64,000 nucleotides of DNA, from NCBI RefSeq assembly GCF_054482595.1, contig NZ_CM137008.1. The stretch is one strand, 5' to 3'. The first letter of the stretch is position 1, and each line of letters starts with the position of its first letter. Position numbers: made by a program. Below are positions 1-3,000 of this stretch, one piece after another.

Positions 1-3000
1 CAATCAACTTCCCTTTCGGGTTAGTCAGCAGACCGCAGGTCATATCGTATTCGCCAGGCTGTAAATTCGCCGTCATTTTCTGGCTAAAACCAGGGGCGAT
101 ATTTTCCCGCTCTTCCACCACCATCACGCCTTTGAGGATCTCCCACTCCAGCGCCTTCTGGCTATGGTTCTGAATAATGAACTGTGTTTTCCCGGCGTTA
201 ACCGTAATGGTCATCGGTTCGCACTGTTTATCCGTCACGGTCACTTTGACTTGCGGAATATCAGCGGCGTTAGCCATAAAAGCAGAAGAGAACAGCGCAG
301 CCACGCTCAACTGCAATGCGTTACGGCGGAAGTTAATGGTCATGACGAGACTATCCCTTTTAAGTATGTTGTAACTAAGCAAGAGTTTGCGTCGTATTTG
401 CTACGCGGAGCGAGACGCTGTCGCCCCTGCACGTGGTGGCAGAGCAAACGCCACCAGCGCCGGGATGAGATAAATAAACCAGACGGCGACTTCGCTGACG
501 CTCGGCGCTTCCTGATAACCAAAAATACCTTCCATTAGCGTGCCGAACAGCGAGTGAGTTGAGAGCACCGCGCTCATATCGAAGGCGATTTCCTGAAAGT
601 GGTTCCACAATCCGGCTTCATGAAATGCGCGAATGGCACCTGCAGCCAGTCCTGCGGCGACGAAGAGAATAAATAGGCTGGTCCATTTAAAAAATGCACC
701 AAGATTGAGGCGAATACCGCCCCAGTAGAGCAGGAAGCCGAGCACCACGGCAGTAGCAAGACCGAGCATTGCACCCAGCGGCGGCCAGATCCCGACATCT
801 TGTTGAAATGCCGCCAGCAGGAAAAAGACCGACTCCAGGCCTTCCCTTGCAACGGCAAAAAAGACCATCATCACCAGCGCCCAGCCATGATGATTTCCAC
901 GCTGCAATGCGCTATCGACTGCCTGTTCCAGTTGCACTTTGACGTTGCGCGACACTTTGCGCATCCAGAAAACCATCCAGGTAAGGATCACCACGGCGAT
1001 CACCGCCACGATACCTTCAAACAGTTCCTGCTCTTTTTGCGGAAATTCGCCGGTGGTTTCGTTAATGAAGATACCCAAGCCCAGGCACAACGCAGCGGCA
1101 AGCAACACGCCAATCCACATCACACCAATCCATCGGCCTCGCTGGGTACGCTTAAGATAGCTGGCAATCAAACTGACAATCAGCGCGGCTTCAAGCCCTT
1201 CGCGCAACATAATGAGAAATGGAACAAACATGCCACCCACCCTTAAACGTTTTTCTGAGTCAATCTATGCAAAGAAAAGTAAATCGCAGTGATAGCGATT
1301 ATCATTACGCTAAAGAAAAATACAAGCGGAATGTTTATAAAATGATGTTGGAATGTAAAAATGAGGAGATCAAATCCGGAGAAAAAAGCGATTATTTTAA
1401 GGTATTTAGCTGACGTTTCGCCCGGCAGATGAAGCTTGTACGAATGTTGGTGGCGACAAACTCGCTGCAGCGTGCCCCGAAGGGTTGAATTTTCAGTTAG
1501 TCGTTTCACAAAAGAACGTTGTTTTTTGCTTATTAATAGATAGTGATAAGGTTGTGAATGAAATTATACCTCATCTCCTCATCGAATTTTTTGCCCACAA
1601 CCTAAACAGGAGAAAACGTGTATTTAAGTCTGGAATGAGCGATTTTTGATAGTGCGTAATTAACCCAAGAAATTATAATCCCCCTTATTATATGTCCAGT
1701 GATATCATTTTATGGCTAAAGCTATATACAACTCTAAATCACGATAAAACGAAGCAGGATGCGCATTAATAAAGTCACACATAATAAAAATAGAAATCTT
1801 AACCAGAAGTAATAGATCATCGTGAAAATCAATCACCAAAAACACCAACACACAAAAATCAATAAGTTAATAATTGTTCAGGGCTTTTTTCTCACGATTT
1901 TTCTACTATGACATTATCACAAACCCACTAGCATGAATACAGAAAGAGAAGTAATAAGATGAGACGCCACTGCTTTCAGATAAACCCTGTAATTAGGGTC
2001 GAGAATATAATTTATCCATTCCCCTAACGATAAATTAAAAAATTTGCGAGTTAATTTTTCTCTGGCTGAAGGCTAACGTCGAATTACCGACAAGATTCAC
2101 GAGTGATTGTAACTACGTACTTTATGAAACACAGGAAGAAATTACTATTTACCGCGATAGTTCAAGGCGTAAAAAAAATAATAATATTCATGAAACTCAT
2201 CCCGATGGCAGCATTGTAAATTCGCCAATAACTGGCATTCCTCCTGCTTTTTACGGGTGTTTCCATTAACACCAGAATGAGCGGATTGTTTACTACATCA
2301 AGAACGCATCCGAAGTGTACATCCTGGTGCGCCGACTGAATCGCCCGGAGCCATGCGGATGGCTACGACTTAATACGAATCATTAACCCTGTAAGGATAC
2401 GGAGAGCATGACATGAGACCAATATCCAACCTCAATACGAGCGCAGCAACCTATATTCCACCGCAACAACTCCCGAGTAGTTGTCTGGAAACTTTGACGC
2501 TTCTGGTGCAGATGAATAATTATATCAAAAGGGATGCGGACTACAGCACGGGCATGGCTGTTACTCCACTGGTTCCTGAAGAGGTTCACTTGCTGGCTGT
2601 TGCGATGACAACCGAACTACATCGACATCAGTTCCAACCGGTGGTAAGTGCAAATGATCTGCAACTTCCTGAACCGTTCACCTTCGATGTTGCCGGTTTC
2701 ACCATCACCTTCACGAAGACGCAAGAGCATGACAACACGGGCAATCTCATGAAAATTGCAGTCAGCAAGAGCGGTGTGTGCACCAGTACAAATATTACTC
2801 TTGAGCTGTTTCACTCCATTGTCACAACCCTGATGTCACGCAGTCAATATGGAACCTTTGATCTCTGGTCCGTACGGCCAATACTCACGGATGAAAGTCA
2901 AAACAGGGTGCATGAAGCAGCTCGCTACTCCCCGGCCCAGCAATACGGAAGAGAAGAAACACACTTTACCAACAATGGCATGCGAGAATTTGGAAATATG

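Follow-up and report, generated by a model that had tools for sequence, protein, structure and literature searches.

The frameshift in efeU of Escherichia coli K-12 has been known since 2006–2007, and EfeUOB (YcdNOB) was reportedly described by Cao et al. in 2007 as a low-pH ferrous iron transporter that is cryptic in K-12 and functional in O157:H7. In MG1655, the transporter is non-functional owing to the frameshift in efeU (PMC2808357). Homology between the permease EfeU and yeast Ftr1p has been stated repeatedly (PMC9174327, PMC3577903, PMC4746246), and the two are distant, with about 25% similarity (PMC3577903). The whole system may be seen as an analogue of the yeast Ftr1p–Fet3p pair, in which EfeU would import iron passed on by two partners, the periplasmic EfeO, with its cupredoxin and M75 domains, and EfeB, a DyP-type haem peroxidase exported by the Tat pathway. 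The redox chemistry of EfeUOB and the role of EfeO are still debated (PMC9174327, PMC3577903). Further bacterial systems in which periplasmic or extracytoplasmic proteins accompany an EfeU/Ftr1-like permease are EfeUOB (YwbLMN) of B. subtilis, FepABC of S. aureus, FtrABCD of Bordetella, FetMP of E. coli F11 and P19-cFtr1 of C. jejuni (PMC9174327).

We analysed a stretch of 64,000 nucleotides from contig NZ_CM137008.1 (the window), in which the original prediction had placed an intact efeU at 401–1231, reading as one frame from MFVPFL to the stop. The coordinates proved exact, and the strand, which had been left unstated, is the minus strand. Conceptual translation of this strand gives MFVPFLIMLREGLE...PRAGATASRSA followed by the stop, a single frame of 276 codons with no stop inside. 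We conclude with high confidence that the gene at positions 1231 to 401 is a normal chromosomal efeU in intact form, from an E. coli other than K-12, and that it encodes the inner-membrane permease of EfeUOB, an Ftr1p-like OFeT. An intact efeU of this kind is already known and is ordinary. The gene, its parts and the adjoining portion of the operon are as follows.

401..1231, minus strand: efeU coding sequence, 276 codons plus TAG, with the ATG at 1231–1229 and the stop at 403–401 (sequence, ORF and translation; profile matches; RefSeq annotation of 100% identical DNA).
1190..1204, minus strand: first REXXE motif, R10-E-G-L-E14 (motif positions), within hydrophobic segment 1 by hydropathy.
1125..1126, minus strand: GG at gene positions 106–107, the first two bases of codon 36 (GGT); K-12 lacks one G (alignment; PMC3577903).
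833..847, minus strand: second REXXE motif, R129-E-G-L-E133, within hydrophobic segment 4 (reverse complement AGGGAAGGCCTGGAG, checked by eye).
344..400, minus strand: efeU–efeO spacer of 57 bp, equal to the spacing in the annotated XH990 operon.
2..343, minus strand: first 114 codons of efeO, a signal-peptide-like N-terminus and a cupredoxin-like domain (translation without stops; Pfam Cupredoxin_1; annotated as efeO in identical genomes).

A mechanical list of ORFs stretches the efeU frame to an in-frame GTG at 1240, giving 279 aa, three codons longer. The ATG at 1231 is the start annotated by RefSeq in genomes with 100% identical DNA, and starting there yields exactly the 276-aa sequence filed under EFEU_ECO57.

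Assignment of the protein to the EfeU family is based on full-length profile matches that lie above curated cut-offs and far beyond chance. The translated sequence scored 331.2 bits against the NCBIfam EfeU equivalog NF041756 (E = 4e-99; cut-off 255), 351.7 bits against TIGR00145 (cut-off 303.8) and 300.3 bits against Pfam FTR1 PF03239 (E = 2e-89 over residues 1–275; cut-off 25.3). A Pfam MFS_1 match of 27.1 bits was below its cut-off of 33.4 and was set aside, and no relative of solved structure emerged when EfeU was searched against PDB sequences. The REXXE motif is present twice as REGLE, at residues 10–14 and 129–133, inside the first and fourth of seven hydrophobic segments (approximately residues 1–24, 32–61, 68–94, 118–141, 146–175, 177–204 and 242–268). 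These segments were counted where the 19-residue Kyte–Doolittle mean was at least 1.5, a crude hydropathy measure and no topology predictor, and their number agrees with the seven membrane segments given for EfeU and Ftr1p (PMC9174327).

The original prediction had stated that efeU is frameshifted in K-12 and had proposed an alignment with the K-12 and O157 genes as a check. We aligned efeU of the window with those of K-12 DH5a, O157:H7 TT12B and strain XH990. The sole indel was in K-12, where the GG at gene positions 106–107 (codon 36; window 1126–1125) has lost one G. The window keeps both bases and its frame runs on to residue 276; by alignment and translation, the cryptic K-12-type allele with its one-base deletion in codon 36 is absent from the window gene. 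The K-12 product reads ...RWIV and is cut short at 36 residues, inside the first membrane segment or directly behind it, and RefSeq flags the K-12 gene as 'frameshifted'. The K-12 lesion is thus confirmed both by the flag and by the aligned deletion.

Comparison of the alleles revealed 20 nucleotide differences between the window and O157:H7 TT12B, all 20 of them synonymous, and 17 between the window and the K-12 gene with its missing G restored, again synonymous in every case (17/17). That all the differences are synonymous indicates purifying selection. The repaired K-12 gene (L001:4001-4830) encodes a protein identical to EfeU of the window and of O157:H7, which leaves the frameshift as the sole lesion of the K-12 coding sequence. 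It presumably arose recently in that lineage, and would represent a lineage-specific lesion, not the ancestral state. A single accession, WP_000497942.1, covers EfeU of the window DNA, O157:H7 TT12B, XH990 and O157:H16 Santai, and the sequence is identical to the UniRef representative EFEU_ECO57 (Swiss-Prot), found on at least 1000 contigs.

Counts across complete genomes put the two alleles in proportion. At 80% coverage or more, efeU is present in 5,417 of 5,426 complete E. coli genomes. A probe of 70 nt, taken from K-12 and spanning the deletion, was exact in 368 of the 5,382 complete E. coli genomes that it matched, and among the matches listed all 60 were laboratory derivatives of K-12, judged by name or by K-12-like size (MG1655, DH5alpha, C600, J53, DH1, NCM3722 and others). 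The 71-nt version of the probe taken from the window was exact in 3,602 genomes, the other 1,796 being full-length one-mismatch variants together with K-12-type records. Since the deletion allele occurs in only 368 of 5,382 genomes, an intact efeU is the norm; counted at the codon 36 site alone, at least about 93% of complete E. coli genomes have it. The broken K-12 copy is the exception, and an intact efeU says little beyond 'not K-12'.

These counts also bear on whether the intact frame could be an artefact of sequencing or assembly, the real genome being frameshifted like K-12. The K-12 lesion does sit in a short run of G, where single-base errors are conceivable, and nothing more specific speaks for an artefact. 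The 71 bases around the site are, however, identical in those 3,602 independent complete genomes, there are 17 further positions at which the window allele departs from K-12, and several independently sequenced genomes match the whole first 20 kb at 100%. An error that hides a K-12-type frameshift therefore has next to no chance of being the explanation, and we regard it as effectively refuted already.

The window also differs from K-12 outside efeU. Its minus-strand order is putA-putP-(accessory segment)-efeU-efeO', the efeO frame being cut off by the window start. The putA-putP and efeU-efeO flanks are 97.6–97.7% identical to K-12 (a divergence of about 2.3–2.4%), and at window positions 1366–3903, a segment of 2.5 kb, K-12 has instead about 406 bp that are mostly unrelated. 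Positions 1–20000 are 100% identical to O157:H16 Santai, THO-010, SM107, XH990 and others. A K-12 derivative in which efeU had reverted or been repaired would encode exactly the same protein as the window, which is the one observation that such a host would share with ours. It would not account for the 17 synonymous differences within efeU, the divergence of both flanks, the 2.5-kb segment with its 447-aa gene, or the perfect match of the first 20 kb to O157:H16 Santai, XH990 and others. The flanks, the segment and the synonymous differences together rule out a repaired K-12 background, to which we assign a vanishingly small probability. The claim that the background is not K-12 is therefore upheld, by the intact allele as well as by its diverged surroundings and its 100% matches to non-K-12 genomes.

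We then considered whether the intact gene belongs to a working operon. Within the window, the operon is represented by efeU and by 114 codons from the start of efeO; the M75 domain and efeB lie beyond the window start. The efeO frame begins 57 bp past the efeU stop, is open in translation over those 114 codons, and its N-terminus matches Pfam Cupredoxin_1 with 88 bits. In XH990 and O157:H16 Santai, both 100% identical to the window over positions 1–20000, efeO and efeB are annotated as intact (efeB being WP_001199119.1), and from these identical genomes we infer a working EfeUOB system in the window strain. The suggestion in the original prediction that the system 'could be functional' is reasonable, as the protein is identical to EfeU of O157:H7, where the system is reported to be functional. 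Following the literature and the genomes with identical DNA, efeU would be co-transcribed with efeO and efeB, repressed by Fur and induced at low pH and low iron.

The region upstream of efeU contains the following features.

1232..1365, minus strand: efeU 5' region with the leader and presumed promoter, common to K-12 and O157:H7; homology to K-12 ends at about 1365.
1291..1309, minus strand: Fur-box-like CGTAATGATAATCGCTATC, 15/19 against GATAATGATAATCATTATC, ending 59 nt upstream of the efeU ATG; assigned by sequence.

Repression of the efeUOB operon by Fur has been stated (PMC3577903, PMC4746246), and the Fur-box-like site would fit this as a match to the consensus. The 19-mer is identical in the window, K-12 and O157:H7. 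A search for the Fur consensus at up to three mismatches found none near efeU, the site appearing at four mismatches, and five sites as good as a 15/19 match occur on the two strands of the 64-kb window. A 'terminator-like' hairpin at 1300–1282 was discarded; it overlaps the Fur-box region upstream of efeU and probably reflects no more than the dyad of that site. The 134 bp adjoining efeU have a GC content of 34%. They form part of an AT-rich stretch of about 1.2 kb (1232–2412) between the divergent efeU and 447-aa genes, of which K-12 shares the first 134 bp only, and which contains no ORF of more than 88 aa and no consensus promoter. A search of positions 1–6000 against Rfam at the gathering threshold gave no match. 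As the sequence beyond position -134 is unlike that of K-12, the regulation of efeU could differ in detail.

This upstream divergence is one of the reasons why efeU could be intact while EfeUOB is non-functional or silent, through damage to efeO or efeB or through altered expression. K-12 homology ends 134 bp before the efeU ATG and gives way to the 2.5-kb accessory segment, and a scan of window positions 1–2500 for a sigma-70 consensus promoter found none. Yet this upstream segment is also found in O157:H7, where the system is reported to be functional, and the O157:H7 sequence from -134 to -1 is almost identical to that of the window. With regard to damage to the partners, efeO is present in the window with just 114 codons and efeB not at all, but both genes are annotated as intact in the genomes that are 100% identical over positions 1–20000. 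Every substitution in efeU is moreover synonymous, as expected of a gene in use. We therefore think it improbable that the system is silent, and retain the reading of efeU as probably part of a working operon.

The accessory segment between putP and efeU (1366–3903, 2.5 kb) is present in 645 of 5,426 complete E. coli genomes (12%), its carriers including O157:H7, O55:H7 and O145:H28. It contains one larger gene.

2413–3756, plus strand: ORF of 447 aa, 'hypothetical protein', divergent from efeU.

The 447-aa protein had no match in Pfam, NCBIfam or PADLOC, its close homologues are found in E. coli only, and a literature search by presumed O157 locus tags for the gene returned nothing relevant. 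An exhaustive HMMER search revealed that residues 240–430, approximately, consist of three copies of a repeat of about 62 residues, which forms long arrays in proteins of 250–2,136 residues. Three of these repeat-array proteins carry SET domains, and one relative sits among type III effector genes, being flanked by an IpgD/SopB-like gene, which is accompanied by a type III chaperone, and by an NleG-like gene. The AlphaFold model of the repeats (pLDDT 90) predicts small helical modules that are weakly HTH-like, while a single-sequence AlphaFold prediction of the whole protein was uninformative (pLDDT 35). One could imagine that the segment alters efeUOB regulation in this lineage, for example with the 447-aa repeat protein as a local regulator, or that the protein has no connection with efeU and is a secreted DNA-binding effector not yet described. 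We consider these proposals very unlikely.

The far end of the window, from about 29700 to 64000, is occupied by a lambda-like prophage with tfa, stf, lom, J, tape measure, head, terminase, lysis, Q and nin genes on the minus strand. The end of its b region adjoins torT, and the absence of torS from the window points to an insertion between these two genes. The prophage shares about 96% identity with lambda in K-12 BW2952 and 99.5% with prophages in EC5502 and 4FM, 99.5% being also the best match in the complete-genome collection. Three AT-rich ORFs lie in the b region, which has a GC content of 38%.

30227–30829, plus strand: b-region ORF of 200 aa, with marginal ZorB/MotB matches (E 0.002–0.006, about 15 bits).
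31173–32210, plus strand: b-region ORF of 345 aa.
32618–33877, plus strand: b-region ORF of 419 aa, matching phrog_19262 (unknown function) with 968 bits.

None of the three received a Pfam or PADLOC assignment, and they are possible accessory or defence cargo. The best match to window positions 39001–64000 (99.5%) is NZ_CP130669.1, a 111-kb record from SM107 bearing a plasmid label. The SM107 chromosome matches positions 1–20000 at 100%, and the plasmid-labelled prophage record may point to an oddity of assembly or labelling in that genome.

In practical terms, the intact efeU serves as a quick marker for a non-K-12 strain that probably keeps the low-pH EfeUOB iron route. As such it is relevant only when the iron physiology of the window strain is compared with that of K-12.

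Among described systems, the locus is closest to that of O157:H7, whose EfeU (EFEU_ECO57; WP_000497942.1) is the same 276-residue protein. The O157:H7 locus has the same putP-efeU-efeO order and the upstream accessory segment, and the 140 bp before its ATG are almost identical to the window. O157:H7 TT12B differs by its 20 synonymous efeU nucleotides, and the best matches to the window are O157:H16 Santai, XH990, THO-010 and others. The K-12 efeU (ycdN) pseudogene is orthologous and stands at the same locus, with the same Fur-box-like 19-mer and, once the G is restored, an identical protein; it lacks the one G of codon 36 and the 2.5-kb upstream segment, both of which the window has. Saccharomyces cerevisiae Ftr1p, an OFeT with the ferroxidase Fet3p as its partner, shares with the window protein the Pfam FTR1 family, seven membrane segments and paired REXXE motifs. 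The partners differ, EfeU being accompanied by EfeO (cupredoxin and M75) and the DyP peroxidase EfeB, whereas Ftr1p is accompanied by a multicopper oxidase. The other bacterial Ftr1-type systems, likened here by their published description, differ from EfeUOB in their partner proteins and in their preferred iron redox state.
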